64,000 bases of DNA from Candidatus Latescibacterota bacterium (GCA_965116875.1 OZ220733.1:1056001-1120000); one strand, 5' to 3'. Counted from the first letter of the stretch, positions 17,209 through 37,459 are shown. Notes: generated from the sequence alone by a model not told the origin. Translations and numbers: made by a program.

Positions 17209-17568
17209 TGGTTCGCGTTCCTGAAATCATCAATTGGCGCGGACCAGGTGAATTCCGAAAGAGGGCGGTCCGGACTCCCGCACATGGGAGCAGAATCGCC
17301 GCCCCGTTGAATGTAGGGGATATGGGAAGCCGAATCAAGAGGCAGGTTCCGCCAACGCCAACGCCGCGAAAAACCATTGACATCGGAATCCCTGCAATGC
17401 ATGTTTTGTTCGTCGTGGACTATTTGAGTAGAAGATGAATAAAATCAACCAGATAAGGGATTTATCCGGTCTCGCCGACGCCAGAGGCCGGCGGGCACGT
17501 ATGGCCGATCGCGATGACGCCGGGCGGCAGATTCCGAAGGGCAATGGGCTTCCAGAGGAGGGTTTGCG

Positions 17569-18207
17569 ATGAACGTATTGATCCTGTCGGGTGCAAATCA
17601 CGGCTTTGATCAGAGCGCCGGAATGATCCATGGGTTTCTGGAGGACCAGTCCGAACTGTCCGTGCAGCTGAGCACGGACAAGGACCTGCTGGCAGGCGGG
17701 ATGGACCCTTACGACGTCTGCGTGTTCGGAACGGGGTTCACGCGTACCGCCAGGCGGGAGGACGGTTCGATTGCCCGCGAACCGGACCTGACGCCCGCGC
17801 AGGAGGACGGTCTCTTCGGGTTCGTCGGCGGCGGCAAGGGGCTGGTGGGGATACACGGATCGGCATGGTGGATCGGCGGGCCGGCGGTGGACCTCCTGGG
17901 CGGGCACGCCAACTGGCACCCGCCCGGGTTGACGTTCAGCGTACGGGTGGAAGACGCGGACCATCCCGTGATGGAAGGCATCGAGGATTTCGAGGTGGAC
18001 GACGAGATTTACATTTCGGCGTATGAACCTCAACTGCGGATTCTCGCGTCCGCGCAATGGCATGGCGGGACGTTTCCCGTCGCGTGGGTGAAGGAGTACG
18101 GATCGGGCCGGGTCTTCTACACGGCGCTCGGCCACGGTCCCGGGACGTTCGCGAGGCCCCCGGTACAGGCCATGCTCTGCCAGGGCGTGCGCTGGGCCGC
18201 GGGTTGA
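17569..18207 (+). CDS. ThuA-like (class I glutamine amidotransferase-like) domain protein
   Basis: GGKGLVGIHGS, DHPVMEGI-DF-V-DEIY, PVAWVKEYGSGRVFYTALGH. Confidence 0.88.
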   Translation: MNVLILSGANHGFDQSAGMIHGFLEDQSELSVQLSTDKDLLAGGMDPYDVCVFGTGFTRTARREDGSIAREPDLTPAQEDGLFGFVGGGKGLVGIHGSAWWIGGPAVDLLGGHANWHPPGLTFSVRVEDADHPVMEGIEDFEVDDEIYISAYEPQLRILASAQWHGGTFPVAWVKEYGSGRVFYTALGHGPGTFARPPVQAMLCQGVRWAAG

Positions 18208-18330
18208 ACGTCACACACTGAGGACCACATTTCGAGGGCTCAATAGCCCGTCGCGCGGCGCGGCCGTTTATTATTCGAGCCGGATAAGGCGCCGGTTTGG
18301 CGCCGGGTTTCGACTCAAGGAGGAACCGAG

Positions 18331-19116
<786 letters not shown>

Positions 19117-19121
19117 CCGAT

Positions 19122-19895
19122 CTATATCGCCAGCTGATGCGCCCGGGTGAAGCAGCGGCGGCGGACGACGTGCACCACGAACACGGAGCCGATGGCAGTG
19201 GCGGCGACGATCATCAGCATCACGATGATCTGATATTTGATGGCGGTCATCGGATCGGAGCCGGCCAGGATCTGACCCGTCATCATCCCGGGCAAAGACA
19301 CCAGGCCGACGGTCATCAGGGCGTTGATGGAGGGTATCATGCCGGCCTTCACCACGTCGCGGAGAATGGCGGCCGTGGCTTCCTGGTAGGTGGCCCCCAG
19401 ACAGAGGGCGAGTTCGATCCGATCCCGCTGATTGCGCAGGTCGGAGAAGAGGCGTTCCAGGGCGATCGTGACCGCGTTCATGGAGTTGCCGACAATCATG
19501 CCGCCCAGGGGGATGAAGTACTGCGGCGTGTACCAGGGCTTGACCTGAACGATGACTGCCGTTACCAGGATGGACACGGTGGTGTAGCTCGCTACCATCG
19601 AAATGAAGGTGGGCATGAAATAGGCCACCTCCTTTTCCTGTACCCGGCCGCGAATGGCGTGAGCGGCCCAGAAGACCATCCAGACGAAGAGGATCAGAAT
19701 CAGGAACGGGTCGTTGATCTGGAAGATGTACTTGAGAACGTAGCCCACGAGGAAGAGCTGCGCGAAGGTGCGCACCGTGCCCCACGCGAGGTCCCTTTCC
19801 AGGTTGAGCCGGAAGACAACCGAACCGGTTCCCGCGATCAGAACGAAAATGAGACACAGAAGCAGTTGCACGGGCGTGATCTCGATCAGGTTCAA
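19122..19895 (-). CDS. fetB: FetB/YbbM (UPF0014) ABC transporter permease
   Basis: RTFAQLFLVGYVL, PQYFIPLGGMIVGNSM, GLVSLPGMMTGQILAG-DP--AIKYQI; TTG start at 19895 after RBS ggagg. Confidence 0.88.
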   Translation of the reverse strand: MNLIEITPVQLLLCLIFVLIAGTGSVVFRLNLERDLAWGTVRTFAQLFLVGYVLKYIFQINDPFLILILFVWMVFWAAHAIRGRVQEKEVAYFMPTFISMVASYTTVSILVTAVIVQVKPWYTPQYFIPLGGMIVGNSMNAVTIALERLFSDLRNQRDRIELALCLGATYQEATAAILRDVVKAGMIPSINALMTVGLVSLPGMMTGQILAGSDPMTAIKYQIIVMLMIVAATAIGSVFVVHVVRRRCFTRAHQLAI

Positions 19896-20554
19896 GCGGA
19901 GACCTCCTGAAGACCGCCGTCGAGCCGGTAACGCCGGGCCGTGACACGAACCGGTATGAAGTCCAGGTGCGTCACCTGGACAATACCGATGTTCTGTTCG
20001 AGCGCGAGGCGTTCCAGCCATGATTCGACCACGGATCTGGACTCGGGGTCGAGGGCGGAAGTGGGTTCGTCGCAAAGGAGAAAACGGGGTTCGGACAGCA
20101 GCGTGCGAATCAGCGCGATCCGCTGTTTCTGTCCGACGGAAAGCGTCTCCGCGTCGTCGTCCAGATCCACGTCCTGAAGCAGGAAATCATCCAGGAGGGC
20201 GCTGAGCCGGTCATCGTCCGGCGGTTGTCGTTCACGTGCGGCTTTGAACGTGAACGACATGGTCAGGTTGGCACGCACGTTGCCACCGGCCATCGCGGGC
20301 GTCTGCTGGACGTAACCGATCATTCGCCGCAACTCCGTGACGTTGTGGCGAGTCACGGGTTCGCCGTCAAGCAGGATGTCGCCCGTTGAGGGTTCCTGCA
20401 GCCGGTTGGGCAACCTGAGGAAGCTGGATTTTCCGCTTCCCGACGGACCGTGGATGAGTACGAAATCGCCGCTGTCAACGGTGAGGTTCACACGTTGAAA
20501 CAGCGGTTTTTTTGTACCGTACTGAAGCGAAAGGTTTTTGATCTCGAGGCGCAT
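19892..20554 (-). CDS. fetA: FetA/YbbL-like ABC ATP-binding protein
   Basis: Start MRLEIKNL at 20554; GPSGSGKSS, LSVGQKQRIAL, LCDEPTSALD, VTH; directly upstream of fetB. Confidence 0.85.
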   Translation of the reverse strand: MRLEIKNLSLQYGTKKPLFQRVNLTVDSGDFVLIHGPSGSGKSSFLRLPNRLQEPSTGDILLDGEPVTRHNVTELRRMIGYVQQTPAMAGGNVRANLTMSFTFKAARERQPPDDDRLSALLDDFLLQDVDLDDDAETLSVGQKQRIALIRTLLSEPRFLLCDEPTSALDPESRSVVESWLERLALEQNIGIVQVTHLDFIPVRVTARRYRLDGGLQEVSA

Positions 20555-20577
20555 GGCTGCCTGAAGAGCGCGAACGG

Positions 20578-21963
20578 TTACACGTGCTTGAAGATTTCCA
20601 GCACGTCGATGATGCTCAGGCCCGTGTGATATCCGGGGTCCGCATCCGCGGTGGCGGGAATGACGGGCACGACCCGGCCGGATTCGTCTCGGGTCTGATA
20701 GGCCATCAGATGGAGGTCCGGACGAACGAAGTGCCTTGTGAAGGCGTTGTGGCACGCGCTGAATATACCGAGGGCGCTCTGTCGCTGTGCCGTGGACCGG
20801 GCGATCGAAAAGCAATACGTGGCGGCGCGCATCGTTTCGGGCAGGTTCCACCACGGCATGTCGGTATTGGCGGGTGCGCGGGAAACCAGGTCGACAGCCT
20901 TGCAGATGCCGCCGGGACCGGGCTGGAAACCCCCCGCGAACGTATGCGCGAGCAGCGCGGGCATATGCGCTTCCACGCCGGCGATTTCCTTCAGTTGTCC
21001 GGGTTCCGCCAGTGCGTTTTCTCTGACGGCGGAGGTGAATTTCAGCGTAAGTCCGATAAATTCGAGGACGTGGCCCGGATCGGAGAGGATCTTTCCGTCC
21101 TCCTCGAAAGGCGCGCCGTCGTCGTCCACGGCTTCCCAGAAATCGTACTCCCTGAGACGCGGGACCCGCCCGTTCAGATTGACGTAGGTCTTCATTTCGC
21201 GGCGGATGAGGCGCAGGCCCATTGCCACGCTGTCGGGAACGCGGTGTTCGGCCAGCATGGCCGCGGCGCCGATCTGAATCATGTACGCGCCGTGGGGATG
21301 GCGGCCGGGCCGGGGCGCCGTGGGGTTCCCGGGGTCCAGCGAAATCTGGTCGGTTACGAAACGCCCCCCGTGAATTGCGTCGTCCACGCGGCGGCAATAC
21401 GCCATGGCTTCCGCTTCGGCATCCTCCAATTCGAGGGTTCTCGCCGCGGCAACCATGCCCTTGGCGCCGAAGAGGTCGCTGAACCCGTAGCTCGTTTCCC
21501 CCGTGAGCTCCATCGCCCGGATCCCGCCTTCCTCGTCCAGCGTGAACGGGTCTCCCTCAGGGGTCATGAAAAAGGAAAGCCGGCCGGCGTTCCGGGCCCG
21601 GATTTCACGAAGCGCCTCGAGTACCTCGGCCGCGATGCGCTCCAGACGCTGCCGCAGTTCCGGCGCCAGGCCGTGGCGGCGCATCCACCGACAGTGCCCT
21701 GCCAGGGATTCGAGACCGCGCCCCTGAATCCAGCCGTAGACCGCGTTCGCCCCCCGAACGGGATCGCCACGCGGGAAGTCCTCCCCGGTGATGAGGTCCA
21801 GTTTGGTATCGATGAAAGGATAGTCCGGGGCGCGTTCATACCGGTCCGCAATGGCGGCCATCACCGCAAGCAGCATGGCGCGGTAGTCAGGCAGAACGGA
21901 CCCGACGTCGAGGGGCGAGGGACGTTCCGGGAGGAGGTTTCCCCGGTATACGAAATCGGGCAT
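20578..21963 (-). CDS. AGE-family (N-acylglucosamine 2-epimerase-like) alpha/alpha-barrel epimerase/isomerase
   Basis: GWIQGR, HPHG-YMI, DPGHVLEF, WWNLPE, DPGYH motifs. Confidence 0.75.
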   Translation of the reverse strand: MPDFVYRGNLLPERPSPLDVGSVLPDYRAMLLAVMAAIADRYERAPDYPFIDTKLDLITGEDFPRGDPVRGANAVYGWIQGRGLESLAGHCRWMRRHGLAPELRQRLERIAAEVLEALREIRARNAGRLSFFMTPEGDPFTLDEEGGIRAMELTGETSYGFSDLFGAKGMVAAARTLELEDAEAEAMAYCRRVDDAIHGGRFVTDQISLDPGNPTAPRPGRHPHGAYMIQIGAAAMLAEHRVPDSVAMGLRLIRREMKTYVNLNGRVPRLREYDFWEAVDDDGAPFEEDGKILSDPGHVLEFIGLTLKFTSAVRENALAEPGQLKEIAGVEAHMPALLAHTFAGGFQPGPGGICKAVDLVSRAPANTDMPWWNLPETMRAATYCFSIARSTAQRQSALGIFSACHNAFTRHFVRPDLHLMAYQTRDESGRVVPVIPATADADPGYHTGLSIIDVLEIFKHV

Positions 21964-22069
21964 GTCGGCGGCTCCCGGGATGCGACCCCTTCATTGCTAT
22001 CTGAATCGGGGCGCAGCGCCCGCCTGGCTCGGATGCGTTCTGGCTTCAACCGGGCGCTGCGGGGCAACG

Positions 22070-22906
22070 CTACGACCAGACGTAGACCTCGCCGTCGTCG
22101 TTCGACCAGCCGATGAAGACGGCCAGGACGATTCTGGGGTCGGTTCCTTCGACCGCGGGGACCTCGTGGATGCAGCGCGTGTTGAAGAAGTAGAGATCGC
22201 CCGGTTCGAGTTCGACGCGGCAGCGTTCGACGTTGTTCAGCCGGGCGTACTCGTGAAAGGCATCCGCGGCGATATGGGATTCGACGTCTTCCGTCCACAG
22301 GCACCGGTGCAGGATGGCCTGGGTTGCCGGACCGGCCTGGGCGGCGTTCTGGAAGCAGACGACGCCGGCGAACTGGTGCTCGAACCGGGAGACCTCGTAA
22401 TCGAAGCGCTTTTCGCGCAGCGTGACGTGATCGATATGCGGCCGGTAGGTGTGGTGGGTGTAGTGGATGCGGAAAATGGCCGAACCGTAGAGCCGGCCGT
22501 CGGGTTCGCGGGCCGTCATCACCCGTTTGCCGGCGGCCAGGGCGCTGAGGCTGTCATAGATGACGTCGACCGGGTTGTCGAAGCCATCGAAGAGGTGTCC
22601 GAACAGGTCGTGGGTACGGACGGCGTCTTCGAAAAACCCCCGCTGGTCGTCACCCCTGTTTCCAAGGCTGGTGCCGACGTCGATTCGAGTGCGGGCGTCG
22701 TCGGAGTCGGTCTCAGCCGGGTCCCGCATCAGGCCGCGGTGAATGAAGCGACGGATCAGGCCCCTGCAATGGTCGGGATTGTAGGACCGCCGCAGAAGGA
22801 TGGCCGGTATCTCCGCCGTAGAAAGGGCGTGGAGCGGATTTGCGTACCTCGCGTTCACGGTTTCCAGGTCCGGACCGACCGGCAGCCAGGAATCGGCGGC
22901 GGGCAT
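22070..22906 (-). CDS. 2OG-Fe(II) oxygenase-like protein
   Basis: Start MPAADSW at 22906 after RBS ggagg (the track start lies in the MITE); PHID...LEPGDLYFFN--CIHEV...R facial-triad pattern. Confidence 0.7.
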   Translation of the reverse strand: MPAADSWLPVGPDLETVNARYANPLHALSTAEIPAILLRRSYNPDHCRGLIRRFIHRGLMRDPAETDSDDARTRIDVGTSLGNRGDDQRGFFEDAVRTHDLFGHLFDGFDNPVDVIYDSLSALAAGKRVMTAREPDGRLYGSAIFRIHYTHHTYRPHIDHVTLREKRFDYEVSRFEHQFAGVVCFQNAAQAGPATQAILHRCLWTEDVESHIAADAFHEYARLNNVERCRVELEPGDLYFFNTRCIHEVPAVEGTDPRIVLAVFIGWSNDDGEVYVWS

Positions 22907-22920
22907 ATCGGTTTCCTCCC

Positions 22921-23084
22921 AGAAGCTGTGTTGAAATTCACGGTGCGTTCCCGAGCGCGAGCGAAAAGGTGGCGGTCGAGGCGGGAAAATCCGCCCATAT
23001 TTGTCTATACGGGTGGATTTGACCAACGCGGACCGACGCATTTGCAGCCGCGCGAAGACCGCCGGGAATTTTAATACAGCTTCT
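22921..23084. mobile_element. MITE-like element, family B (164 bp), copy 1
   Basis: TIRs agaagctgtgttgaaatt / aattttaatacagcttct; near-identical full copy at 50869-51032. Confidence 0.85.
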
Positions 23085-23089
23085 TGACG

Positions 23090-23584
23090 TCAGGCCAGGT
23101 CTTTGAATTCGATGTGCAGGTATTCCCGGTATCCGGTGAGCCTGCGGTAGACGACCCCGGCGCTGTCGAACATACGTTTCGAAGCTCGAACGGAATCGGT
23201 CTCCGCGTATTTATCGGCCAGAAAGATGACTTCCCGGATGCCCGATTGAATGATGACCTTCGCGCACTCGTTGCATGGAAAGTGGGTCACGTAGATTGTG
23301 CAGTTGTAGAGGTTGGTGTCGATCTTGTTCAGGATCGCGTTGAGTTCGGCGTGGCAGATGTACGGATACTTGGTGTTTAGAAAGTCGCCCTCTCTTGCCC
23401 ACGGATATTCGTCGTCCGAGCAGCCGATGGGCAGGCCGTTATATCCGATTCCCACGATTTTCTTCTTCTCGTTGACGATACACGCGCCGACGCGGGTATT
23501 GGGGTCCTTGCTCCTCATGGCGGAAAGCAGCGCGACGCCCATGAAATATTCATCCCACGAGAGATAGTCTTCGCGTTTGTTCAT
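23090..23584 (-). CDS. dCMP deaminase
   Basis: SWDEYFM, RSKDPNT-VGACIV, GYNG-P, CHAELNAILN, FPCNECAK. Confidence 0.95.
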   Translation of the reverse strand: MNKREDYLSWDEYFMGVALLSAMRSKDPNTRVGACIVNEKKKIVGIGYNGLPIGCSDDEYPWAREGDFLNTKYPYICHAELNAILNKIDTNLYNCTIYVTHFPCNECAKVIIQSGIREVIFLADKYAETDSVRASKRMFDSAGVVYRRLTGYREYLHIEFKDLA

Positions 23585-23704
23585 TTTTAACCAGGTAAGT
23601 TGCCGGAGTGATGGAAACGCGCGGGCAAGGAAGAATCCGGACCGGGGCCTGCAAAGACAATATGCTCTTCAATGACGACATCCGCAACCGTTTCTTTGGC
23701 TCCG

Positions 23705-23740
23705 GTGTCCTGTCCCGGTAATTCCTCACGATTCGACCGC
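23705..23740. repeat. Left-end fragment of MITE family A at the RiPP cluster boundary
   Basis: gtgtcctgtcccggtaattcctcacgattcgacc matches 16887-16920. Confidence 0.7.
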
Positions 23741-23744
23741 GGGT

Positions 23745-24836
23745 TCAGGGCATCGCCGCCGCTTCCGGACCGACCCGCAGCAATCTGAGGCCGGCATATG
23801 CTTTGGCCTGAACGCCGCCAACGCCGACCGCCAGTTTCACGTGATTGAGTCCCTTGTGAAGGACATACGCACCTTCGTTACCGAATACCCGTTCCAGCCC
23901 GGGGAAGGAGCGCAAGCCATTCCCCTTTGCCGGCAGACAGAGTTCACGCGCCTCCATACGTTCCAGAACCGGCAGCCACGTCCTGACGCCCGTACTGAGC
24001 CAATCCCCCACCGGCCAGCGGCCCTTCCTTTCGCTTCGCGGAAACATCTCAAGTCCCAGACGCGGCCGCAAACCGCGAGCCGAAGCGTCGAAACAGGGTC
24101 GGAAGTATGGAAATACGTCCCGCCATTCATCAAGGGTCTTCATCGCATTTCGCACCGAACCGGGCCAACCGGAGCGCTCCAGGAAAACGGGCATTTCCTC
24201 CGGCCTGACGCCGTTGACAATCACACGCACGGCCCTGAAGGAGCGGCCGGGCATCGCTCCCACGTGATCCAGCCGCCCCCCCGGCGGGAGAGCGTTGACG
24301 ACACGTTCCACGACACGGCGCTCAACGGCGTCATCGTTCCATCCCACCGCGTTCGTCAACTCTGCAACCGCGTCTCCAGGAGAACAGACCTCTGAACCCT
24401 CCGGCGAAGGAGCGGGACGCAACCCGAGAAACAGGCCGGGATCCGGCGATGCTTCCGACTCGACTCCGGCGACGTCGTATTCGAGCATGATATCGTTATA
24501 CCTGGCGCTCACGGCAAATCCGGCCGGCGTCCGGGTTTCCGCAATCTCCGAGAGGAATCTTCCCAGCGCGGCTGCCGCGGAATCCTGCTGGGCCGTCTTT
24601 CCACGATCGACGAAGTGCCCGGGCAATCCCGGATGGCCCGGAAGCACGCGCACAGAGAAGTCGGCCGCGGGCGCGGGGTCGCCCAGCGCAAATTCGAAGA
24701 ATACCCTGTACAGGACCGGCCACCCGGGAAGTTCGCCGACCCCGCGAACCAGACGGTCCCATTCGGGACCGTCTACAAGCTCCCGTGGAATGAAACGGCG
24801 CGATTCCGGTGAAATCAGCCTGAGGGACCCGGACAT
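23745..24836 (-). CDS. Uncharacterised protein downstream of the NHLP precursor; candidate RiPP tailoring enzyme (possibly ABBA prenyltransferase-like)
   Basis: RBS aaggag then ATG at 24836. Motifs FFEFAL...ADFS, MLEYDV...PDPGLF, GAMPGR--RAVR, GWPG, PRLGLE, LC-P-K--GL--FPG, GLNHVKL...AKAY resemble proteins I recall beside NHLP/Nif11 precursors; fold assignment is inference. Confidence 0.6.
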   Translation of the reverse strand: MSGSLRLISPESRRFIPRELVDGPEWDRLVRGVGELPGWPVLYRVFFEFALGDPAPAADFSVRVLPGHPGLPGHFVDRGKTAQQDSAAAALGRFLSEIAETRTPAGFAVSARYNDIMLEYDVAGVESEASPDPGLFLGLRPAPSPEGSEVCSPGDAVAELTNAVGWNDDAVERRVVERVVNALPPGGRLDHVGAMPGRSFRAVRVIVNGVRPEEMPVFLERSGWPGSVRNAMKTLDEWRDVFPYFRPCFDASARGLRPRLGLEMFPRSERKGRWPVGDWLSTGVRTWLPVLERMEARELCLPAKGNGLRSFPGLERVFGNEGAYVLHKGLNHVKLAVGVGGVQAKAYAGLRLLRVGPEAAAMP

Positions 24837-24954
24837 CGTCAACTCCTTCGTCGTACCGCTACATTCGAATCCTCATGCCATTGCAGGCGGGAGGACGCTG
24901 CCCGCGCCCGTTCGGACCGGAACGGACGCCGGCAGGGTTCGCGTCGGACGTACA

Positions 24955-24987
24955 GAAAAAACCGGCGTCGCCCGAAGGCGGCGCCGG
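24955..24987 (-). terminator. Intrinsic terminator downstream of the precursor gene
   Basis: Stem ccggcgtcgcc/ggcggcgccgg with loop cgaa (TTCG on the minus strand), followed by a U-tract on the minus strand (plus-strand aaaaaa at 24956-24961). Confidence 0.7.
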
Positions 24988-25059
24988 GAAGATGAATCGT
25001 AGCGCCTGGTGGAATTCCTGATCCCGCCGCCTGATTTCACGGCGAATCTCCGTGAACGA

Positions 25060-25374
25060 TCACGGACCCCCCAACGGCACGTGGTATTCGTCGTGATGAT
25101 CATGACCCCATTCACAGTTCTCCGCGCCCCCGCCGCCAACGACCGCCGCCAACTCGTCCTCGCTCATCGCCTCCGGTCCGGTTCTCAGCGGGAGAACCAG
25201 GTGCGCGGTAGACAGGTTGTCTTCGTGGACTTCAACCGCGAAATTTTCCGGAATCTTAACGCCGAGCTCTTTTTCTATCGAGCCCCTGGGATCTTTCAGC
25301 AGACCGGCGCGAAACTCCGCGTCAAACGACGCTTTGAATACGACGTGTTCCTGCATTTCCTTCATGGTCTTCAT
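25060..25374 (-). CDS. NHLP-leader (proteusin-type) RiPP precursor peptide, 104 aa
   Basis: RBS aggagg then MKTMKEMQEHVVFKASFDAEFRAGLLKDPRGSIEKELGVKIPENFAVEVHEDNLSTAHLVLP...MSEDELAAVVGG|GGAENCEWGHDHHDEYHVPLGGP; KA--D-EFR--LL-DP, V-VHE, LVLP and the ELxxVxGG cleavage motif. Confidence 0.93.
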   Translation of the reverse strand: MKTMKEMQEHVVFKASFDAEFRAGLLKDPRGSIEKELGVKIPENFAVEVHEDNLSTAHLVLPLRTGPEAMSEDELAAVVGGGGAENCEWGHDHHDEYHVPLGGP

Positions 25375-25510
25375 CGTAGCCCTCCTATCCTGACGTGGTG
25401 GAATAAAGTGAACTTTTCGTGATACTCGATATAAATATCGTCTTAATCGTGATTTAATGGATCTATATCGATAATAAAAATGACCTTTTCGTGATAATAG
25501 CCACAACGCA

Positions 25511-25538
25511 AATATAACGAAGTTCTGTTGAATGTCAA
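25511..25538 (-). promoter_or_regulatory. Sigma70-type promoter for the precursor gene
   Basis: Minus strand TTGACA-N16-TATATT, followed by a very AT-rich leader in a GC-rich genome. Confidence 0.7.
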
Positions 25539-25588
25539 CCCCGGCGCCGGGACTCCCGGGAGGGCGCGGGGGCAGGTCCCTTTGCGAC

Positions 25589-28531
25589 TCAGGCGCTCGC
25601 CGACTGAACCGTCTGACGCCGCGCGAGACCGGCAAAGACCCCATTGCGCTCGATCAACTGCCGGTAGCTGCCGCTTTCCACGATACGCCCGGCGTCCAGC
25701 ACGAAGATTCTGTCAACGTCGCGGATCGTACTCAGCCGATGGGCAATGACGACACGAGTCACCCCCAGACCCTTCAGGGACGATTGTACCACCGCCTGCG
25801 CCCGGTTGTCCAGGGCGCTGGTGGCCTCGTCGAAAAGCAGAATGCGCGGCTTCCGGGCGAATGCGCGTGCGATCAGCAACCGCTGCTTCTGTCCTGCCGA
25901 AAGACCCACGCCGCCTTCCGGAAGGATCGTATGCATTCCCATCGGCATCGCCCGTATATCTTCTTCGAGCGCAGCCGCCTTGGCGGCAGCCCACGCCTCT
26001 TCATCGCTCAACGGAGACATCCCGGCGATATTCTCGAATATATTCCCCGCGACGATCTGGCCGTTCTGAAGGACGACGCCCAACTGCCTGCGGAGGGCCG
26101 TCAGGTCCAGGCTGGACAGGTCGTGCCCGTCCAGAAACACCGTCCCTGACTCCGGACGTTCAAAACCGAGCAACAGGCGGTAGACGGTTGATTTTCCGCA
26201 GCCGGAGGGTCCCACGAACGCGACGTAGTCGCCCTGCCGGATTCGAAACGATACGCTGTCGATCGCCTTTGACGCTTCCGGACCGTATCGAAAGTTCACG
26301 CTTGAGAATTCCAGTTCGCCCTTTATGTCCGAAAGCTCGATGCGTCCGTACGCGGTCTCGGGCGTCGCATTGAAGATCGGTCGTACGCGTTCGAGAAGCG
26401 GGATCACGGCGATTGCGGTTGCCGCGGCGGAGGTGAGGGCAAACACTGCGGCGGTGAGCTGGCCGAACGCGGCATTGAAGGATAGAAAACCCGCCAGGTC
26501 GAACGTGGATCCTCTGGGATCCAGGATGGCGTGCTGCACCGACTCGAAGATGACGATAAGCGCCAGCGGATGGAACATGCCGACAACGACGTATTGCGCC
26601 GCGGTCCACTTCAGCGCGGAGAAGGCGGCCCGCTTCTGTTCGGCGAAACGCCGGGCCCAGCGCGCCAGCGCGAAGGTCTCGGAATTGGCGACCCGAAGCT
26701 TGGCAAGGCCGGTGATCAGTTGAAATACGAACCCGTTGATCGCTCCCTGAATGCGAAATACGTCCCGATAATGACGAAGCTGCCCCCGAGCCAGAAACCA
26801 TGCCGCACCCACCAGGACGAACAGCATCAGGCAGACGTACAGAGCGAGCGACCGGCTGTAGTAGAAGAGCAATGCGAGGTTGAATACGGAAAAGATGCCG
26901 CCCATGGCGGCGCCCACGGCCGCGAAGGAGATGATGCGCCTGATCTCGCTGATTCCGTTCGCGCGGTTTTCAAGGTCCCCCACCGTGTAGTCGCGAAAAA
27001 ACGGTGCGCGAAGCGCAATCAGCCGGCTCCAGATGGCGGACTGGAGGCGCTCGTCGACGCGACCCTCGATCCTCAGCAGGGCGATTCCGCGCACAATCTC
27101 GAAGACTGCGTTCCCGAAAGCAGCCAGTATCAGCGCGATCAGTGCGACAGACCACAGCGAGATTTCTGCCCGGGGAATGATGCGGACGAGCAACTCACCG
27201 GTAAGTATCGGCGTCAGGAGTGACACCATCCCGCCCAGGATGCCCACCAATAACACCGTACGAAGATCCTCCCCGCGGCGATGCAATGAGAATCGAAGTA
27301 CGGACCCGCCCGACTCGATGCGGTTGGGCAGTGGCGCGTAGAAAGCCAGACCGCCCGGGGCGATGCCCGCCGCGTTGCTTTCGGTGACCACGAGAGATGT
27401 ACCCGTGACCGGATCGATCGCCCGGTACGCGCCGCGGTTGTCGGAAAGAAGCGCGAGCGGCCGGTCCGCGCCGTCTTCTCCCGCGGTGAAACCCACCAGG
27501 GAAGGGCCGTCACGCCGCCACCATCCCGGCTCCAGCGAAATCCATCGCGTCCGGATCCCCGACCTGCGGGCAATCCCCTCCACAGCCTCCACGGACGTCT
27601 GTGCTTCCCCGGACTTCGAGGGAATCTCCAGCGAGGCCCCGCAGGAAGAAGCCACGATGGCTGCCGCCGCCTGAAGAGGCGTTCCGTCGCTGCCGGCGGC
27701 GATCGCGCTGTCGCCGGGCCCCGCCAGAATCCTCTCAAATCCGCCGAGCGCCCGCGTAACCGATGTTCTCCTGACTTCGTGGGCGTTGCGGCGGCGGACC
27801 TGCAGGTTCTCGGCAGACTCAGACTCGGCAAGAATGGCGAATTCCAGGATTCGTGCGCTGAAACCCTCAAACGCTTCCCAGAACCGGTCCGTGAGAAGGG
27901 CCGTTGGCGTATAGAATGCGGACACCGTCGCGTCGGCGTCGATCTGCATCCATGTTCGCTCTGTAACCGGCACGAGCGGACCGCCCGCCGCCACGGCCAG
28001 GGCTTCACGGCCTGCAAGGCGCATCGGCGCATCGGCGCCGACCCAGATGACGTCCATGTGCTGGGCGCTGAGCATGCTGCCGGCCGCATAGGAAACGTCC
28101 GGCTCCGCCTCCAGCAACCGCGCACCCCGGGGCGGCGGCCGATCCCGAACCACGAATTCCGAGATCCGGGAAATCCATTCGTCGATCCAGCTGGTCGCGG
28201 CAAGATCGAAGTCGTCCGTAGCGACGCCGTCCCGCTCTCCCCGGACGATGACCGCGTCGAGAGACGGTACGGCGAGGAATCCGAATGTGCGATGAGGCTG
28301 ATCCGGATGCCTGACCGTGTCTGCGCCAAAGGCCATTTCTCCGGCCGGAACACGGGCGACGAAGTTCCGGCGGCCCGCGGCTTCGCTGTCTTCGAGTTCG
28401 ACCGCGAATACGTCCAGATATCCCCGTTCAACGAAGTAGACGACGGCCGTGTCGTCCATCGGGAACGGCCGGTGAGCGCCGGTTTCGATCCGGACGCCGC
28501 GTATGCGTTCGATGAGCGGCGTTTCAGGCAT
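25589..28531 (-). CDS. NHLP bacteriocin export ABC transporter permease/ATPase with N-terminal cNMP-binding-like extension
   Basis: N-terminal VYFVERGYLDVF...GEMAFG; L---WWRRDGP-L; TMD; GPSGCGKST, LSAGQKQR, FDEATSALDN. Confidence 0.9.
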   Translation of the reverse strand: MPETPLIERIRGVRIETGAHRPFPMDDTAVVYFVERGYLDVFAVELEDSEAAGRRNFVARVPAGEMAFGADTVRHPDQPHRTFGFLAVPSLDAVIVRGERDGVATDDFDLAATSWIDEWISRISEFVVRDRPPPRGARLLEAEPDVSYAAGSMLSAQHMDVIWVGADAPMRLAGREALAVAAGGPLVPVTERTWMQIDADATVSAFYTPTALLTDRFWEAFEGFSARILEFAILAESESAENLQVRRRNAHEVRRTSVTRALGGFERILAGPGDSAIAAGSDGTPLQAAAAIVASSCGASLEIPSKSGEAQTSVEAVEGIARRSGIRTRWISLEPGWWRRDGPSLVGFTAGEDGADRPLALLSDNRGAYRAIDPVTGTSLVVTESNAAGIAPGGLAFYAPLPNRIESGGSVLRFSLHRRGEDLRTVLLVGILGGMVSLLTPILTGELLVRIIPRAEISLWSVALIALILAAFGNAVFEIVRGIALLRIEGRVDERLQSAIWSRLIALRAPFFRDYTVGDLENRANGISEIRRIISFAAVGAAMGGIFSVFNLALLFYYSRSLALYVCLMLFVLVGAAWFLARGQLRHYRDVFRIQGAINGFVFQLITGLAKLRVANSETFALARWARRFAEQKRAAFSALKWTAAQYVVVGMFHPLALIVIFESVQHAILDPRGSTFDLAGFLSFNAAFGQLTAAVFALTSAAATAIAVIPLLERVRPIFNATPETAYGRIELSDIKGELEFSSVNFRYGPEASKAIDSVSFRIRQGDYVAFVGPSGCGKSTVYRLLLGFERPESGTVFLDGHDLSSLDLTALRRQLGVVLQNGQIVAGNIFENIAGMSPLSDEEAWAAAKAAALEEDIRAMPMGMHTILPEGGVGLSAGQKQRLLIARAFARKPRILLFDEATSALDNRAQAVVQSSLKGLGVTRVVIAHRLSTIRDVDRIFVLDAGRIVESGSYRQLIERNGVFAGLARRQTVQSASA

Positions 28532-28535
28532 GATG

Positions 28536-30755
28536 TCAGTCCGACATGACCAGGGTCCTGTAAAGGCCCTCTTCCGCGATCAGGCTGTCGTGGGTGCCGC
28601 GCTGGACGATGCGGCCCCGGTCGAGGACGACGATCTGGTCCGCGTCCCGGATGGTACTCAGCCTGTGGGCAATGATGAGGCATGAACATCCGCGGCGTCG
28701 AAGCCGGTCGTCGATCTCGACCTCGGTAATCGGATCCAGCGCCGCGGTGGCCTCGTCGAGCACCAGTACGGCGGGATTCCTCACAAGCGCACGCGCGATT
28801 TCCAGGCGCTGCCGCTGACCGCCGCTGAAATTGCGCCCTCCCTCGCTGACGGGGGAATCGTATTTCATGGGCCTTGCAGAGACGACGTCATGGATTGCGG
28901 CATCCCTGAGCGCCTGTACCACGTCACGTTCTTCAATATCGGGATCCCACAACGAGACGTTTTCCCGCACGCTGGCCTCGAACAGTACGACCTCCTGGTC
29001 CACGTAGGATACGATTTCGGCGAAACGGGAGGGAGGGATGTCCTCGAATTCCTGCCCGTCGATGCGCACGGTTCCGGACCAGGGCGTCAGCAGACCGCAA
29101 ACGATCCTCGCGACAGTCGACTTTCCGCTTCCCGACGCGCCTACCAGCGCCACGCGGCGGCCCGGCCCGATGGTAAGACTGAAATCCTCGATGAGGGGCG
29201 GATCCGTGGCACTGTAGCCGAACGTCACACCTTCGAGATCGACGAACCCTCGGGGCGGGGGTGCGTCCGGTACAGGCTCTGCCGTATGGATGCCCCTGAG
29301 CGTTCGCTCGTCGGGGGCGTAGTTCAGAACGTCGTCGAGCCGACCGATATCAGCCCTGATCATCTGCAGACTGGCGCCGAACCGAACCAGACCTTCAACA
29401 GGTCGAGAAAAACTCAGCGTGAGACTCTGAAAGGCGATCAGTCCGCCGATGGATAGCGCCCCGTCGAGGATACGAATTCCTCCGTATCCCAGGACGATGA
29501 TGGACGTGAGCGCCGAGAGGAGAACGGGCGCGACATTGGCGATGGTTGAAACGGTGTCGAGGCTCTGCTGGGCGCGAAGCGCATTGGCGTGGATTCCGGA
29601 CCATCGGGCGAAGAAATCGTCCTCTGTACCGTTGGCCTTGAACGTCTCGATGATCCGGATGCCGTTTATGGAGGCGCCGGCAACCCTGCCCCTTTCTTTG
29701 AGAAGCCTCCGGTTGGCGTTGTCGCGGGCGCGCGCCGCCAAATGCAGCACGATCAGATTTATGGCGACCATCGCCAACGCCATCAACGTGAGCGGAACGT
29801 CGTACGAAACCATGACCAGTGCATAGAACACCATCGTGAATACGTTTATCGCATTGACGGCCAATTCGCCGGAAAGCAACCGCGCGACGGTGTCATTCGA
29901 CGCCACGCGGCTGGCGATGTCACCGGCGTAGCGCTGGCTGAAGAACAACATCGGCAACGTTGCGACGTGCCAGAAAAAGCGCACGGTCGAAATAACGGAC
30001 AGCTTGGTCTCCATCCTTGCCAGGAGGATACGCTGCAGCCAGGTCAGCGCGCCCTGGACAACGGCCGCGAAGGCCAGTCCAATCAGCATCGGAGACACCC
30101 AGGCGCTGTTCTGCCCGATCAGTACGTCGTCGATGAATACCTTGATCAGGGTCGGGACGGCCACGCCGGGCACAACGAGAGCCAGGGTCGCCAGCGCCGC
30201 GAACGCAAACGGACTCCCCGCGTCGCCAAAGCGGGCGTGCAGTCGCCGAATCAGATTGGGCCGCGGTCCCCCCGGACTGAACCCGGACGAGGGCGCGAAA
30301 CCGAAGCAGACGCCCGCGAAGCCCTCGACGAACTCCTGCATCGTGATCCTTCGAGGGCCTTCGCCGGGATCGTTGATATAGACTCTGTCGCCCTTGATCC
30401 CTTCGAGAACGACAAAATGGTTGAACTCCCAGAAGACCACCATGGGAAACGGAACGTCGAACAATTGCTCGTGCTGACTGCGGAAACCCCGGGCGATGAG
30501 GCCGTATTCCCGGGCCGCTTTCAACATATTGGCGGCATTGGCGCCGTCCCTGGAGACGCCGCAGCGTACCCGCAGCGCTTCGAGGGGCACCCATCGTCCG
30601 TGATAGGCGAGAATGATGCCAAGACATGCGGCGGCGCACTCCGTGGTCTCCATCTGCAGGATCGTCGGCGTCCTGAAACGTCCGCCCCGATCGGACCGCA
30701 GGTTCGGACGCAGATCGGCGTGGCGGTCTAATGACTCAGTTTTTCTTTGATCCAT
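28536..30755 (-). CDS. NHLP-family export ABC transporter, C39 peptidase/permease/ATPase
   Basis: RTPTILQMETTECAAACL (catalytic Cys), CGVSRDG, FWEFNHFVVLEG (His), YINDP (Asp); GASGSGKST, FSGGQRQRLEIARAL, LDEAT. Confidence 0.95.
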   Translation of the reverse strand: MDQRKTESLDRHADLRPNLRSDRGGRFRTPTILQMETTECAAACLGIILAYHGRWVPLEALRVRCGVSRDGANAANMLKAAREYGLIARGFRSQHEQLFDVPFPMVVFWEFNHFVVLEGIKGDRVYINDPGEGPRRITMQEFVEGFAGVCFGFAPSSGFSPGGPRPNLIRRLHARFGDAGSPFAFAALATLALVVPGVAVPTLIKVFIDDVLIGQNSAWVSPMLIGLAFAAVVQGALTWLQRILLARMETKLSVISTVRFFWHVATLPMLFFSQRYAGDIASRVASNDTVARLLSGELAVNAINVFTMVFYALVMVSYDVPLTLMALAMVAINLIVLHLAARARDNANRRLLKERGRVAGASINGIRIIETFKANGTEDDFFARWSGIHANALRAQQSLDTVSTIANVAPVLLSALTSIIVLGYGGIRILDGALSIGGLIAFQSLTLSFSRPVEGLVRFGASLQMIRADIGRLDDVLNYAPDERTLRGIHTAEPVPDAPPPRGFVDLEGVTFGYSATDPPLIEDFSLTIGPGRRVALVGASGSGKSTVARIVCGLLTPWSGTVRIDGQEFEDIPPSRFAEIVSYVDQEVVLFEASVRENVSLWDPDIEERDVVQALRDAAIHDVVSARPMKYDSPVSEGGRNFSGGQRQRLEIARALVRNPAVLVLDEATAALDPITEVEIDDRLRRRGCSCLIIAHRLSTIRDADQIVVLDRGRIVQRGTHDSLIAEEGLYRTLVMSD

Positions 30756-31975
30756 GGCAGAACAAGCGCGGCCGGCGATTGGGTGGACGCCCGGATTTCG
30801 ACGGTTGCAAGCGTTCCGGGAGTGATTTCAAGATGAGTGGCTTGCGGCGACGTCCACGCGAAGCCGCTCCGTGTCGTCGCATCCGGCGTGAGCGCGATTC
30901 GCGCCGGATATGGCGGACCGGATGCGGAGAAGGTCCCGGCAAGCTCCTGGTTCCGGAGTACGGCGACCATGCCGTTCAGGCTCGCCGGAAACTCGGACAC
31001 GTACTCTACGGTTCCGATCATGGAGCCGTATTCCTCGCGTCGGACGGTGGCCGGCGTTACGAGAACGGACATGCCCTCCTTGACGCTCTTGCCATCCAGC
31101 GCGGAGACGTACGAGAGCACGTCCAGGCCTTCTCCGCCGGTCTCAATGCTCAATACGGACTCTCCAGGGCCGAGCGTCACGCCAATCTGCGCCTTGATCT
31201 CGATGATCCTCCCGGAGACCGGAGCGCGAATTCGCCAGGTCTCGATGGTCACCCTGAGTTCGCTGACGTCCATCTCGGCTTTCAGGAGTTCGCCTTTGGC
31301 GTGAGAGAGCCGGGAATTGATGCCGCTCCGTCGCCGGACGTCGTCCTCGTCGAGTGCGTCCCGCCGGCGCAGCACTTCGAACAGATTCTGCTGCAGGACG
31401 CTCAGCGCCTGTTCGCTTCGCTCCACGGCCGTCCGATCGATCATCCGCTGCGCGAACAGTTTCCGGTCTTCCTGAAGGCGCATGCCGGCTTTTTCTTTCA
31501 GCTCGCGGTTTATGCGTTCCATCTCGTCCAGCCGGTCCCGCTGCCTGGCGAGGTTCTCCGCCGCGAGCCTGTTCTCCTCATTGGTTTCGGTGATGCGATC
31601 CCTGAGTTCCTCCTTGTGCTCGGCCACGAGCGCGACGGCGCTCTTCAGCCGTTCACTCGTCTCCGCGTCGAAGATCTCAGCCACCACGTCGCCTTCCTGA
31701 ACCTGCTGTCCGACGGCGACCGCGATTCGCGTCAGTCTGCCGCCGCCCGGAGACGCCGCGTCGAATACCATGCCCTTGCGACTCAGAAAAATGCCCTCGG
31801 CTTCCACGTAGATGGAAATCTCGCCCCAGAACCCCCACGCCACGACAGCGCCGGTCAGCGCCAGGAGGACGCAGAGCCACAGCCATGTCATCGGCGTTGT
31901 CACGTTCAGCGCGCGGTCCAGGTGTTCGGGGGTCCGCAGGCGATCAAGCGCCTTGTTTCGATCGGATTCGTTCAT
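30728..31975 (-). CDS. NHLP bacteriocin system secretion protein (HlyD-family membrane fusion protein)
   Basis: ALDRLRTPEHLD---V, N-terminal TM, coiled coil, IRAPVSGRI, P-TVRREEYG, SGF-WTS. Confidence 0.93.
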   Translation of the reverse strand: MNESDRNKALDRLRTPEHLDRALNVTTPMTWLWLCVLLALTGAVVAWGFWGEISIYVEAEGIFLSRKGMVFDAASPGGGRLTRIAVAVGQQVQEGDVVAEIFDAETSERLKSAVALVAEHKEELRDRITETNEENRLAAENLARQRDRLDEMERINRELKEKAGMRLQEDRKLFAQRMIDRTAVERSEQALSVLQQNLFEVLRRRDALDEDDVRRRSGINSRLSHAKGELLKAEMDVSELRVTIETWRIRAPVSGRIIEIKAQIGVTLGPGESVLSIETGGEGLDVLSYVSALDGKSVKEGMSVLVTPATVRREEYGSMIGTVEYVSEFPASLNGMVAVLRNQELAGTFSASGPPYPARIALTPDATTRSGFAWTSPQATHLEITPGTLATVEIRASTQSPAALVLPWIKEKLSH

Positions 31976-32124
31976 GTCTGAGAAGGATGGTAAACCGGAA
32001 GAATGTGATTTTTTCGTGTACCCATTTGATGCCAGCGAATGTAACGCAAATCGTCAGCCGATGTCAATCAGATTTCGAGTCCGCGCCGTTCGATGGATCG
32101 ACCCGTGAAACCCGCGTAAATAAC

Positions 32125-32157
32125 AAAAAGACCACCCGCATATGGGGTGGTCTTTTT
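32125..32157. terminator. Bidirectional intrinsic terminator between the TBDR and the RiPP exporter
   Basis: aaaaagaccaccc-gcatatg-gggtggtcttttt; A-tract and T-tract flank a GC stem. Confidence 0.8.
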
Positions 32158-32380
32158 CAATCGGCAATCATCCGTCTGAAACGGCCGGCGTGGAGACGTC
32201 CGTTGTTCTCCACGACTATTTCAGGGATTTATTATGACATACAGGCGATAGCTGCGGTCCTTTTGGTGACTTATTCATGATACTCGGTAAAGGCCGGGAT
32301 GCACAATCCTGCATGAAACGCGGTCACGGCTCCGTGATGTTCCCCCGGAGATACCCGGCTGTCATCTCGATCGCTTTGGG

Positions 32381-35300
32381 CTATCGCCCGAGGTGATACG
32401 TAACGGCCAGCTTCAGCCGCCGGCCCTTGGGATCGTGCGTGAAGCCGTCGTAGGCCTGCTCGATATTCACGAGAGGGGGCCTGGCGTCCAGCAGATTCAT
32501 TCCGGACAGCGCGATATTCAACCCGTTCGGCAGGTTCCACAGGAACGTCACGTCCCATGTTACATACGATTCGATGGTACCGAAAATGCTCTTGATATTC
32601 GAATTATCGGAGGCCATCGACCCGCGGTCTTCATAGGACGAAATGTAGTTGAGGTAGGTCGCGAGACTGTAGTCCTGCCAGTAGTAGCTGCTGGAAATCC
32701 GTCCCTTGAACTTGGGAAGCGACGTTGCGATGGGATTGCCGAAATTCAGGTAGCCGGCGGCGTCCGCTTCCTCCTGCAGCACCAGGCCGCCCAGCATCAA
32801 CGCCTTTGTCTCGTACGCCAGCGTATACGTGCCTTCCAGGCCGGCCGTGAACAGGCCCGCTCCCTGCGGGACCCGCGTACCCAGATGGAGATCGATCCCC
32901 GAGGTCTTGAGCCCCGGCCAGTTGACGATATCCACCTGCACCCGCTCGAGTTCCGACGCCGCGCACGTGCCGGTACCAATCCCGTCCGGGCACACGATGA
33001 ACTGCTTCAGGGCATCTTTATTGGCTTCGTCCGCGTACAGGGCGGTAATGGCGCCGTGGGGCATGGAACCGATCACGTCGCTGAAATCGTAACTCCAGTA
33101 ATCCAGTGTCGCCTCGAAACCCGTTTCGGTGACCAGGGCGAGCCCCGCGTTAAAGGTGAACGCCCGTTCGGGTTTGAGGTCCTTGCTCCCGATTCTGTCC
33201 ACCGTTTGGTAGGCGCCCGTCTCGTTGATCCATTCGAGCGTGGAAAGCGGGCTTTCATTTACGTCGTCCAGCGACGGCGTGCGGAACGTCGTCTGCACCG
33301 AGCCGCGCAGGAATACGGATTGCTCCGACGATTCCATCAGCTGGTAGCGCCACCCGAATTTGGGATCGAAACTGCTCGCCACGTCGTGGAACTCGTAGTT
33401 GGCGGCGAGTTGCACGTCGAACGACTCGCCCAGGCTGAGGGGCGTTTCCGCAAAGAAGCGATGCACCGTCTGGGATTCATCGTAAGGCCGATGCACATTG
33501 GTGAACGCATAGGGTCCGAATCGGTCCTCCGCCGAGCAGTTCCTGTCGCCCACAACCGGACAGGGGTTGATGGTGACGTCGCCCTCGTCGTTGGGGTCCC
33601 CGCTGGCATTGAACAGCCGGAACTGGTAGCCCGCCGCGTAACTGGCGACGTCCTCGACCCAGGTCCCCGTCAGCGTCGCGTCCGCGACCAGCATGTCGGC
33701 TGTACTCTGCATGTCCACTTCCTGGTTGAGCCAGAGTCGAAGCTCCTCACTGTTGGCAAGCGCGGCGCGGTAGTTCGGATTCGCCCGGGTTTCGTACCCC
33801 GAACCGTACTGGTCCGTGAACTCGATGGCGTTGCCGAAGGGATTGTAATACTTGCAGTTGCCCTGTCCCGCCACCTGACCGCTCAGCGGTCCGAGGCGCA
33901 TCCCTGCCAGCGAGGCGCGGTCCGCCACCACGTCGACGCCGCAGCGCGGCCCCCCGTAGCCCCGGAAGCCGAGGAAGAGCCGCTCGATATACACGCCCGG
34001 CAGGTTGTAGTTGCCCTCGGTGCGGGAATAAGAGAGACCGAGGTCGAAGTGGTTCTCCCGATCGCCGAACGCTACGAAGTCCCCACTCGCGGAGGCCGCC
34101 ATTCGCCAGGTGGCGGCGTCTCGGCCCAGCGTGCGGCCCGGTCCCGAGTTTCCGAAGGGACGACCGTTGAAATACCAGTTTTCGCCGGCCTGGCACGCCT
34201 CGTAGTATTCGTCGGTTGGCTCGGATCCGTAGTCATCGCAGAACGCGCGACGGCCCGGGTGGTCGGGCGCGACCTCCATGATGCTCGTGTCCGTGAGGGG
34301 AAACGGCGGATACGAAGGCGTCGTATACCACTCCGGAATATCCGCCCGCGCCCACAGGGCCTCAACGTGATACTCCGTGCCGTTATCCAGCTTCCCGTTG
34401 ATCTCGGCAAAAGCGCGGGTGTGACTCATTTCTTCAATCAGATTCTCATATTGCTGATACCGGAACCGGCATGTCCAGGACTCACGGAATCCGCCGAATT
34501 CCTCGCACCTCGGGGCGTGAATGGCGGCGGTCCACGGGGCGGGCGCACCGATGGCGAAGGTGCCGGGATTTCCCAGGCTCGACCATCCCAGGCGCTGCCC
34601 CCCGCCGTGCCATGGCTGCAGCAGGTAGTCCCTTTCCCAGGACGGCAACGCCTGGCGTCCCCTCCATTCGGCGGAGACAACCGCATGGGCCTCTCCGAGT
34701 TTCCCGCCCCATATCGCACCGGCGTTGGTATCGCCGGCGCCGGGAAAGTACTCGTGCGCGGCGGAAACCTCGAAGCCCTCGAAATTCCTTCGCGTGAGGA
34801 AGTTGGCCACGCCGCCCACGGCGTCCGACCCGTATATGGCGGAAGCCCCTTCCTTGAGCACTTCAACCCGCTCGATGGCAATCGAGGGAATCACGTTGAC
34901 ATCGACGAAGCGTCCACCGATCAGCCGCGCCGGGACGTAGGTCTGGCGGCGGCTGTTAATCAGCACGAGGGTGCGCGACGCCCCCAGGCCCCGCAGGTTG
35001 ACGTTCGCGATGCTTTCCGAAAGTGTGGCGGCCTGGCCTGAATTGTACCAGCTGCTGCGTTCCCCGATCACGCCGTGGCTCGCGCCGAGATTCTTGAAGA
35101 AATCGACGGCCTGCGGAGACCCCTGCTCCGCCATCTCTTCGCGCCCGACAGCCACAACCGCGTACGTCTGGTTGATGGGGGGTTCCTTGAACGCAGTGCC
35201 GGTCACCACAAGCTCGTCCATGTAGAGCAGGGACAGATCCATGCTCAACGCAACGCGAAGCGTCGCACCCGCGGTGACCGTGATCGTGCGGGGTTCGCTC

Positions 35301-35557: not shown

Positions 35558-35648
35558 GACGAATCCTCCTTTATTCGATTCAGGCGCAGTTGGTTATCGG
35601 TCTTTCACACCTGTCTTCGGAAACGGCGTTGGCAACCGCCCGCGGTAT

Positions 35649-37202: not shown

Positions 37203-37459
37203 CCCGACTAATTCCTTGGTATCAACGCCCGGAACCCCTTCCGGACACGAAAAACGGGTCCCGCGGAATCGTATCGAACGGCCTCGCGGGCAGCTATATC
37301 AATAACGTAAGCCTCATGTTGCATCTTGGCAAGTACAACGTGCCGGAGTCCGTACGACTCCACACAAAAGCGGGTTGCATCGCGAATACGGCCCTTCGAA
37401 CGCAGACCCGCCACCCGGCACGCGGACAGCGGACCGCCGGGCGACAGCGTCACCGATTC

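Follow-up and report, generated by a model that had tools for sequence, protein, structure and literature searches.

A histidine-rich NHLP peptide precursor paired with a predicted ABBA-fold protein: a putative pathway to an exported, prenylated peptide in an uncultured bacterium

The locus described here raises the question of what is made from a short open reading frame whose last 23 codons specify a peptide crowded with histidine and acidic residues. The window, by which we mean the whole stretch of DNA analysed (64,000 nucleotides, GCA_965116875.1 OZ220733.1:1056001-1120000), carries this frame on its minus strand behind a long leader. An initial annotation had proposed either an exported metal-binding peptide or one carrying a modification on Trp, Tyr or His. 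The precursor is composed of the following parts.

25060-25374, minus strand: NHLP-leader precursor ORF, 104 aa, whose translation ends in SEDELAAVVGGGGAENCEWGHDHHDEYHVPLGGP before the stop
25132..25374, minus strand: NHLP leader, 81 aa, ending in M(X)4L and a VVGG double-glycine site (TIGR03793 match; alignment)
25063..25131, minus strand: core peptide, 23 aa, GGAENCEWGHDHHDEYHVPLGGP (translation)
25060-25062, minus strand: precursor stop codon

The NHLP leader model TIGR03793 matches residues 3-81 of the precursor with 60.9 bits against a cut-off of 50.9, which identifies the precursor as a real gene. It is the only NHLP precursor above that cut-off in its own genome, where two weaker matches are both found within 207-aa frames. 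The interval first assigned to the core, 25060-25131, proved exact, comprising 23 core codons plus the stop, and its composition is as originally described, with 4 His, 2 Asp and 3 Glu, a single Cys, Trp and Tyr, and neither Ser nor Thr. Given a His frequency of 1.9% in the neighbouring genes (4459 aa), at least four His in 23 residues would occur by chance with a probability of 9e-4, and the four His in eight residues of HDHHDEYH with a probability of 9e-6 for a given 8-mer. This richness is unusual among NHLP relatives, as a core with three or more His is present in only 2 of the 63 nearest single-domain relatives. The lack of Ser and Thr had been taken to rule out lanthionine and oxazoline chemistry; lanthionine, azoline and radical-SAM chemistry are all rejected, since the corresponding enzymes are also absent from the gene island described below.

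Orthologues of the precursor, at 87-91% identity, are found in five further genomes, i.e., in 6/41 relatives including its own, all of the same genus. Comparison of these six genes, from the window and the five same-genus genomes, reveals nucleotide differences in 12 of the 23 core codons, of which only one changes the residue (G82A), whereas 43 of the 81 leader codons differ, 22 of them with a change of residue. Purifying selection therefore acts more tightly on the core and its His residues than on the leader. C87 and the stretch G90-P100 (GHDHHDEYHVP) are invariant between the window and four metagenomic homologues, and position 89 is Trp but is replaced by Tyr in one of these (P0005). The alignment of cores that had been suggested for judging Trp, His and Tyr conservation thus finds the core His residues and Y97 invariant and W89 exchanged once, for Tyr. 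Failure of the His residues to be conserved, which had been named as a sign against the original proposal, is not seen, and the cluster is kept throughout this genus-level clade. The His-rich peptide is a real and strongly conserved ribosomal peptide precursor.

The run of four glycines at the end of the leader had left the cleavage site ambiguous by two residues. The VVGG sequence is fixed in the orthologues, while position 82 may be G, A or T, and this largely resolves the site to a position after G81. VVGG also aligns with the VVAG, VAGG and VFAG sequences of precursors from other clades. With a cut after G81, positions -4, -7, -8 and -12 are occupied by V, L, E and M, which is the pattern of the double-glycine leader consensus. 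Cleavage after ELAAVVGG and export by a C39-bearing ABC transporter, as initially suggested, are supported by family matches and by the aligned double-glycine-type sites, and the 23-residue core is the likely product.

The genes available to act on this precursor can be delimited by comparison with close relatives. A DNA search with window positions 17500-37400 against five precursor-free genomes of the same genus (G001, G007, G009, G013 and G014) revealed that both flanks are conserved in the island-free genomes, only 246-431 bp apart, and that 23587-32384 is absent as a single block. This limits the island to exactly five genes, the precursor and the four others listed here.

23587..32384: island of five genes, 8.8 kb, absent as one block from five same-genus genomes
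30728..31975, minus strand: HlyD-type periplasmic adaptor of an NHLP system (TIGR03794, 245.8 bits, cut-off 156.2)
28536..30755, minus strand: C39 peptidase/permease/ATPase exporter (TIGR03796, 995.2 bits, cut-off 853.3; Peptidase_C39, E 9.6e-32)
25589..28531, minus strand: second ABC permease/ATPase of NHLP export, without a peptidase domain (TIGR03797, 811.7 bits, cut-off 709.4)
23745..24836, minus strand: 363-aa protein with a predicted ABBA fold (AF2 model; structural matches)

The three export genes lie upstream of the precursor on the same strand, and the gene for the 363-aa protein lies downstream. Judged by its family match, the C39 exporter should cut the precursor after the double glycine. 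The export part is identical in kind to the NHLP bacteriocin export system, for which TIGR03794, TIGR03796 and TIGR03797 all score above cut-off beside a TIGR03793 precursor; these family names say nothing about the chemistry of the core. The second ABC protein carries an N-terminal part of about 280 residues outside TIGR03797, whose match starts at residue 283; this part has no Pfam match at E<=0.01 and could be a leader-binding or regulatory domain. No compositional (GC) anomaly of the island was found.

Several neighbouring genes that might have been considered for tailoring fall outside these limits. Two of them are located as follows.

22070-23041, minus strand: WelO5-family 2OG/Fe oxygenase with an H-I-D motif (PF22814, E 4e-20)
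20578-21963, minus strand: 461-aa protein with a faint GlcNAc 2-epimerase match (E 0.0019)

The WelO5-like oxygenase, the 461-aa protein and a dCMP deaminase are each rejected as tailoring enzymes because all three are kept in the five island-free genomes, and a TonB-dependent receptor is placed outside the island on the same grounds. The oxygenase and the 461-aa protein, conserved together where the island is absent, form a separate pair, and the H-I-D motif suggests that the oxygenase is a hydroxylase rather than a halogenase. Among the five island genes there is no radical-SAM epimerase or other heavy tailoring domain of the kind associated with polytheonamide-like proteusins. The 363-aa gene, of which the genome holds one copy and which occurs in the same 6/41 related genomes as the precursor, is thus the sole non-transport gene beside the precursor and the only candidate maturase of the island.

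The 363-aa protein has no sequence match in Pfam, NCBIfam or the PDB, and PF11991 (Trp_DMAT), PF11468 (PTase_Orf2), PF19156 and TIGR04445 match neither the window protein nor any of 41 + 5 family members at E<=1. Its structure could nevertheless be modelled with AF2 from an alignment of 41 diverse family members (27-82% identity), giving a pLDDT of 87.1 and a pTM of 0.89. The model shows five beta-beta-alpha-alpha repeats arranged as a beta-barrel with flanking helices. The Foldseek matches listed at E<=1e-3 are aromatic prenyltransferases throughout (34 such matches in all), and VIA-align places MpnD at the top with a Z of 17.0 (286 residues aligned, rmsd 3.8), with CymD and the His prenyltransferase FunA each at 16.0, DMATS1 at about 15.3-15.5 and Orf2/NphB at 13.6. 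In a search made independently of Foldseek over 48,161 PDB representatives, 19 chains reached Z>=8 (11.7-17.0), PagF, PatF, DciF, NphB and CloQ among them; all are ABBA prenyltransferases and the next chain scores 6.0, so that the fold assignment is firm. A language-model search that returns Trp_DMAT and PTase_Orf2 clusters at 0.88-0.89 provides a lead only. The protein is thus firmly predicted to adopt the ABBA (PT-barrel) fold of aromatic prenyltransferases. A fold by itself shows no function, and prenyl-transfer activity is what we infer for this protein.

The pattern of invariant residues is consistent with such an activity. Across the 41 members E48, D59, Y120, D121, R198, R204, E263, H332, K334, K345 and Y347 do not vary, and in the AF2 model most of them are on predicted strands and all are on or beside strands. 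This set of Arg, Lys, Tyr and acidic residues resembles the ring that binds diphosphate in this fold, together with its catalytic acid. At least 111 relatives were recovered at E<=1e-3 (8000 candidates scored); all of these are without a Pfam domain, and those few bearing a name are called hypothetical. They are carried by metagenome-assembled genomes labelled Gemmatimonadota, Nitrospinae (Nitrospinota), Chloroflexi (Chloroflexota), Alpha- and Gammaproteobacteria. An alignment-based search for remote kin gained one further relative, P0285 (E 2e-11). On this modelling the enzyme is a new and unnamed branch of a known fold, in a family that comprises over 100 sequence clusters and is not named in any database.

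The gene pair in the window can be compared with its counterparts in other lineages. A scan of one genome per species with an 11-row family alignment yielded 28 loci encoding a relative of the 363-aa protein, and a custom NHLP leader HMM was then applied for precursor detection. The pairing is invariable, with 39 NHLP precursor frames across 28/28 loci, lying immediately upstream of the enzyme gene and in some cases downstream of it as well, though these loci fall into about four enzyme clades and so do not amount to 28 independent observations. In Chloroflexota loci the precursor and enzyme genes abut or overlap (e.g., L037, 7729-8001 and 7986-9077). NHLP-type ABC genes lie within the flanks of 13/28 loci, and no other recurrent maturase was found in the neighbourhoods of these loci. 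The enzyme tree shows one clade per core type, and the cores themselves, of about 13 types, have only the presence of an aromatic residue in common.

This clade (Gemmatimonadota): His-rich core
Clade whose labelled members are Nitrospinota: core ..W..FANAWNSLNQNS
Chloroflexota and one Albidovulum bin: cores NGLISSWARA, FGAFWG, FPIGGAPLWG and FGGSGAPRIGQGW
L048: six different cores in six tandem precursors

Trp is present in 37/39 precursor frames and 11/13 core types, both exceptions being in L048, but it is less discriminating than it seems because Trp is generally frequent among the nearest NHLP relatives (it occurs in 41/63 cores and makes up 4.2% of residues). In a MAFFT alignment most of these Trp residues share one column with W89. 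The His cluster is absent from all other clades of the enzyme-precursor pair.

Several individual loci deserve mention in their own right. At L048:6081-7953 one enzyme gene is preceded by a tandem array of six NHLP precursor genes, each with a different core and two of the cores without Trp, and the enzyme of this locus is the longest branch of the enzyme tree. Hybrid histidine kinase/response regulators (GAF, HisKA, HATPase, REC, Trans_reg_C) adjoin the precursors at L037:5056-7584 and L048:2696-5587, both of which are Dehalococcoidia loci; by analogy, these kinases recall the ComX/PalX pheromone systems and hint that some members of the family may act in signalling. The enzyme of L040, labelled Albidovulum, nests in the Chloroflexota clade with 99/97 support for its grouping with L037, and that of L023, labelled Latescibacterota, nests in the Gemmatimonadota clade; gene transfer, binning error or labelling error could each account for these placements.

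We tentatively propose the following pathway. In the cytoplasm, the 363-aa ABBA-fold protein would recognise the structured NHLP leader and, with a prenyl diphosphate as donor, attach a prenyl group (C5, C10 or C15) to an aromatic side chain in the core, for which the indole of Trp89 in E-W-G is the likeliest site and Tyr97 the alternative. Prenyl donors are available, as the genome has two polyprenyl synthase genes. The C39 domain of the ABC exporter would then cut past Gly81 (VVGG|GGAEN...), and the C39-ABC protein, the second ABC protein and the HlyD adaptor would together export a 23-residue lipidated peptide rich in His, Asp and Glu. As a whole, leader-guided prenylation followed by VVGG cleavage and export is the best explanation of this locus, with a probability that we put at roughly 0.6, and an exported lipidated peptide is the most likely product. 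Signal, antagonist and metal binder are candidates for its extracellular role. Of the initial suggestions, modification of the peptide on Trp, Tyr or His is now the favoured one, in that the sole non-transport gene is ABBA-folded and the common residue of the partner cores is Trp, whereas the modification itself we infer. A predicted complex of enzyme and precursor reached a best score of 0.30 against a mark of 0.32 and speaks neither for nor against the proposal.

The proposed pathway shares individual features with several characterised systems. The closest in kind is that of MppC, an ABBA enzyme of Moorena producens that geranylates one lanthipeptide Trp and does so only with the long Nif11 leader attached (PMC12715784). 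Here, as with MppC and its substrate MppE, the gene for a soluble alpha-beta-beta-alpha enzyme lies beside that of a precursor with a long structured leader. The MppE leader carries an L(X)4L-type motif where the window precursor has M(X)4L, and MppC acts on the indole of Trp, which by analogy is the target proposed here (PMC12715784). Unlike MppE, which has a Nif11 leader and receives a LanM-made lanthionine ring before prenylation (PMC12715784), the present precursor has an NHLP leader, no LanM and a core free of Ser and Thr. Cyanobactin prenyltransferases such as PagF, PatF and DciF have the same fold and peptide substrates, and they align with Z values of 11.7-12.5. However, these enzymes act once the leader is gone, with macrocyclic or short linear cores as substrates (PMC12715784), and are about 300 aa in length as against 363 aa here, and there is no PF19156 or TIGR04445 match to the window protein. 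In structure the protein is matched best by DMATS-type indole prenyltransferases (MpnD, CymD, DMATS1, FgaPT2 and IptA), with Z values of 14-17 and 280-305 of its 363 residues aligned. These enzymes act on free Trp or small indoles, and the aligned identity is 6-14%.

A different solution to a similar problem is provided by PalQ of Paenibacillus alvei, which modifies an NHLP precursor by prenylating its C-terminal Trp in a reaction enhanced by the leader (PMC10853753). The PalQ/PalX/PalP and ComQ/ComX systems resemble the present family in the NHLP-type precursor and Trp prenylation of PalX and in their kinases, genes for which lie beside relatives L037 and L048. PalQ and ComQ belong to the isoprenoid-synthase superfamily (PMC10853753), of all-alpha fold, whereas the window enzyme is modelled as an ABBA barrel; moreover, the island lacks a kinase and has a dedicated three-part exporter, unlike the PalQ/ComQ systems. 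The srp proteusin clusters of sponge microbiomes likewise have an NHLP precursor and a modification that is Trp-directed and leader-dependent (PMC10858898; 10.1101/2023.06.09.544420). They combine a core of the LCCCW type with a YcaO cyclodehydratase and a flavin brominase; the island has none of the three, and its core has one Cys.

Peptide prenylation is a sought-after lipidation chemistry. Among bacterial RiPPs it is known from the cyanobactins, where it is leader-independent, from ComX/PalX, where the enzymes are all-alpha, and since 2025 also from lanthipeptides, where MppC is the enzyme. If the proposed pathway is correct, an NHLP precursor, one ABBA enzyme and an exporter would be the smallest such pathway yet. 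The pairing of an ABBA prenyltransferase with an NHLP precursor was not found in the literature searched, which took in few subscription journals and outside which lies a report by Chekan and Piel. Within that literature, the term 'prenyl' does not occur in a 2025 review of sponge peptides, and neither 'NHLP' nor 'nitrile hydratase' is mentioned in a 2026 review of prenylation.

The first alternative to be weighed concerns the target residue, as an active enzyme could in this clade prenylate Tyr97 or a His rather than Trp89. Y97 is invariant whereas W89 is Tyr in P0005, and the core of the nearest outgroup precursor, P0007 (54% identity), is Trp-free and yet retains H-D-D-Y, to be compared with H-D-E-Y97 here. 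P0007 and the enzyme P0166 (65% identical) are each recorded on one contig, both 10530 long. The free-histidine prenyltransferase FunA (Z 16.0) and the Tyr-bound DMATS1 (Z about 15.3-15.5) are also among the best structural matches. In the other three enzyme clades, however, the common residue is Trp and many cores are without Tyr or His, FGAFWG and NGLISSWARA being examples, and we therefore regard a Tyr97 or His target as unlikely.

A second alternative arises because the metal-binding and prenylation readings can be combined. A lipid on Trp89 or Tyr97 could tether a Cys/His4/Asp-Glu site to the envelope, or carry it into the membranes of a host or neighbour. Such a prenylated metal-binding lipopeptide we consider rather improbable, while noting that the sequence of the His-rich core makes it the one peptide of the family to suggest a function beyond lipidation. 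If true, it would be the first ribosomal peptide to join ABBA-type prenylation to a histidine-cluster metal site, and the producers of the lipopeptide would be uncultured Gemmatimonadota with close relatives in sponge and reef metagenomes.

It is also conceivable that the 363-aa protein is a non-catalytic PT-barrel, acting as a leader-binding chaperone, an immunity protein or an export helper, and that the peptide is exported unmodified. The catalytic families show no sequence match to the protein, and PatF, a cyanobactin protein of the same fold (Z 12.4), is reported to be inactive. Against this, 41 members that are 27-82% identical share invariant charged and aromatic residues located on the barrel strands or next to them, a pattern to be expected of an active site and not of a binding surface for very different cores. 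A purely non-catalytic role thus seems distinctly unlikely.

The original metallophore proposal, taken by itself, would have the His/Asp/Glu cluster and Cys87 bind Zn, Cu, Ni or Co outside the cell, with the neighbouring gene product leaving the peptide unmodified. It draws on the four His within eight residues, on the retention of every His through synonymous change in the six orthologues and on the scarcity of comparably His-rich cores (2/63) among related NHLP peptides. The surroundings of the gene point the other way. The island has no metal-uptake, metal-sensor or chelate-forming gene, the neighbouring TonB-dependent receptor occupies the same place in five island-free genomes, and no metal riboswitch was found, there being no Rfam family in 22000-33000. 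Moreover, the cut peptide begins with G-G-A and so has no N-terminal X-X-His site, the non-transport gene paired with the precursor in 28/28 loci argues for action on the precursor, and the other clades of this two-gene module lack the His cluster. Methanobactins and bufferins are likewise small exported ribosomal peptides with possible metal ligands, and they bind metal via heterocycle or thioamide groups made by DUF692/MNIO enzymes. Unlike in those systems, the island contains neither a DUF692/MNIO maturase nor dedicated uptake genes. Metal binding by an unmodified peptide is accordingly a reading to which we assign little weight.

The region around the precursor also contains candidate expression signals.

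25511..25538, minus strand: promoter-like TTGACA-16-TATATT upstream of the precursor (11/12 consensus positions)
25409-25423 and 25481-25495, minus strand: direct repeats, two exact copies of ATCACGAAAAG[T/G]TCA, a candidate operator
24956..24987, minus strand: terminator-like GC-rich hairpin and U-run between the precursor and enzyme genes (sequence; centroid fold)

Both promoter hexamers are invariant in the six orthologous loci. The two direct repeats are exact over 15 bases, 72 bp apart, and lie between the -10 hexamer and the start codon; the motif has three matches in the window, two of them at the precursor, and 0/100 shuffles reach three. Conserved in the orthologous loci, the repeats may constitute a regulator binding site, which raises the question of autoinduction. 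The hairpin was missed by a consensus terminator scan on account of one stem mismatch, and the fold z-score of the whole 118 nt around it is unremarkable (-1.1). Signals arranged in this way would yield a precursor transcript that is both short and abundant. The hairpin separates the precursor from the enzyme gene in this genome, which counts against the proposed pathway. Within 22000-33000 no Rfam family of any kind was found.

In one run labelled metatranscriptomic, contigs of 88-99% identity cover 25074-25381 (the precursor), 25397-25749 and 24754-24912, and one contig spans the whole precursor gene with 5 mismatches in 308 bases; contigs from an RNA library do not prove transcription, so that the precursor contig is a hint and the uncovered parts of the enzyme gene carry no meaning. 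Close DNA relatives of the locus come from runs labelled sponge metagenome and coral reef metagenome.

Outside the island, between the WelO5-like gene and the dCMP deaminase, lies a repeat of about 165 bp (22921-23084), dozens of copies of which, at 75-93% identity, are found in same-genus genomes, G014 alone having more than 40. Contigs from metagenomes accumulate on this repeat and break at 23084, and it looks like a MITE or REP-type element.
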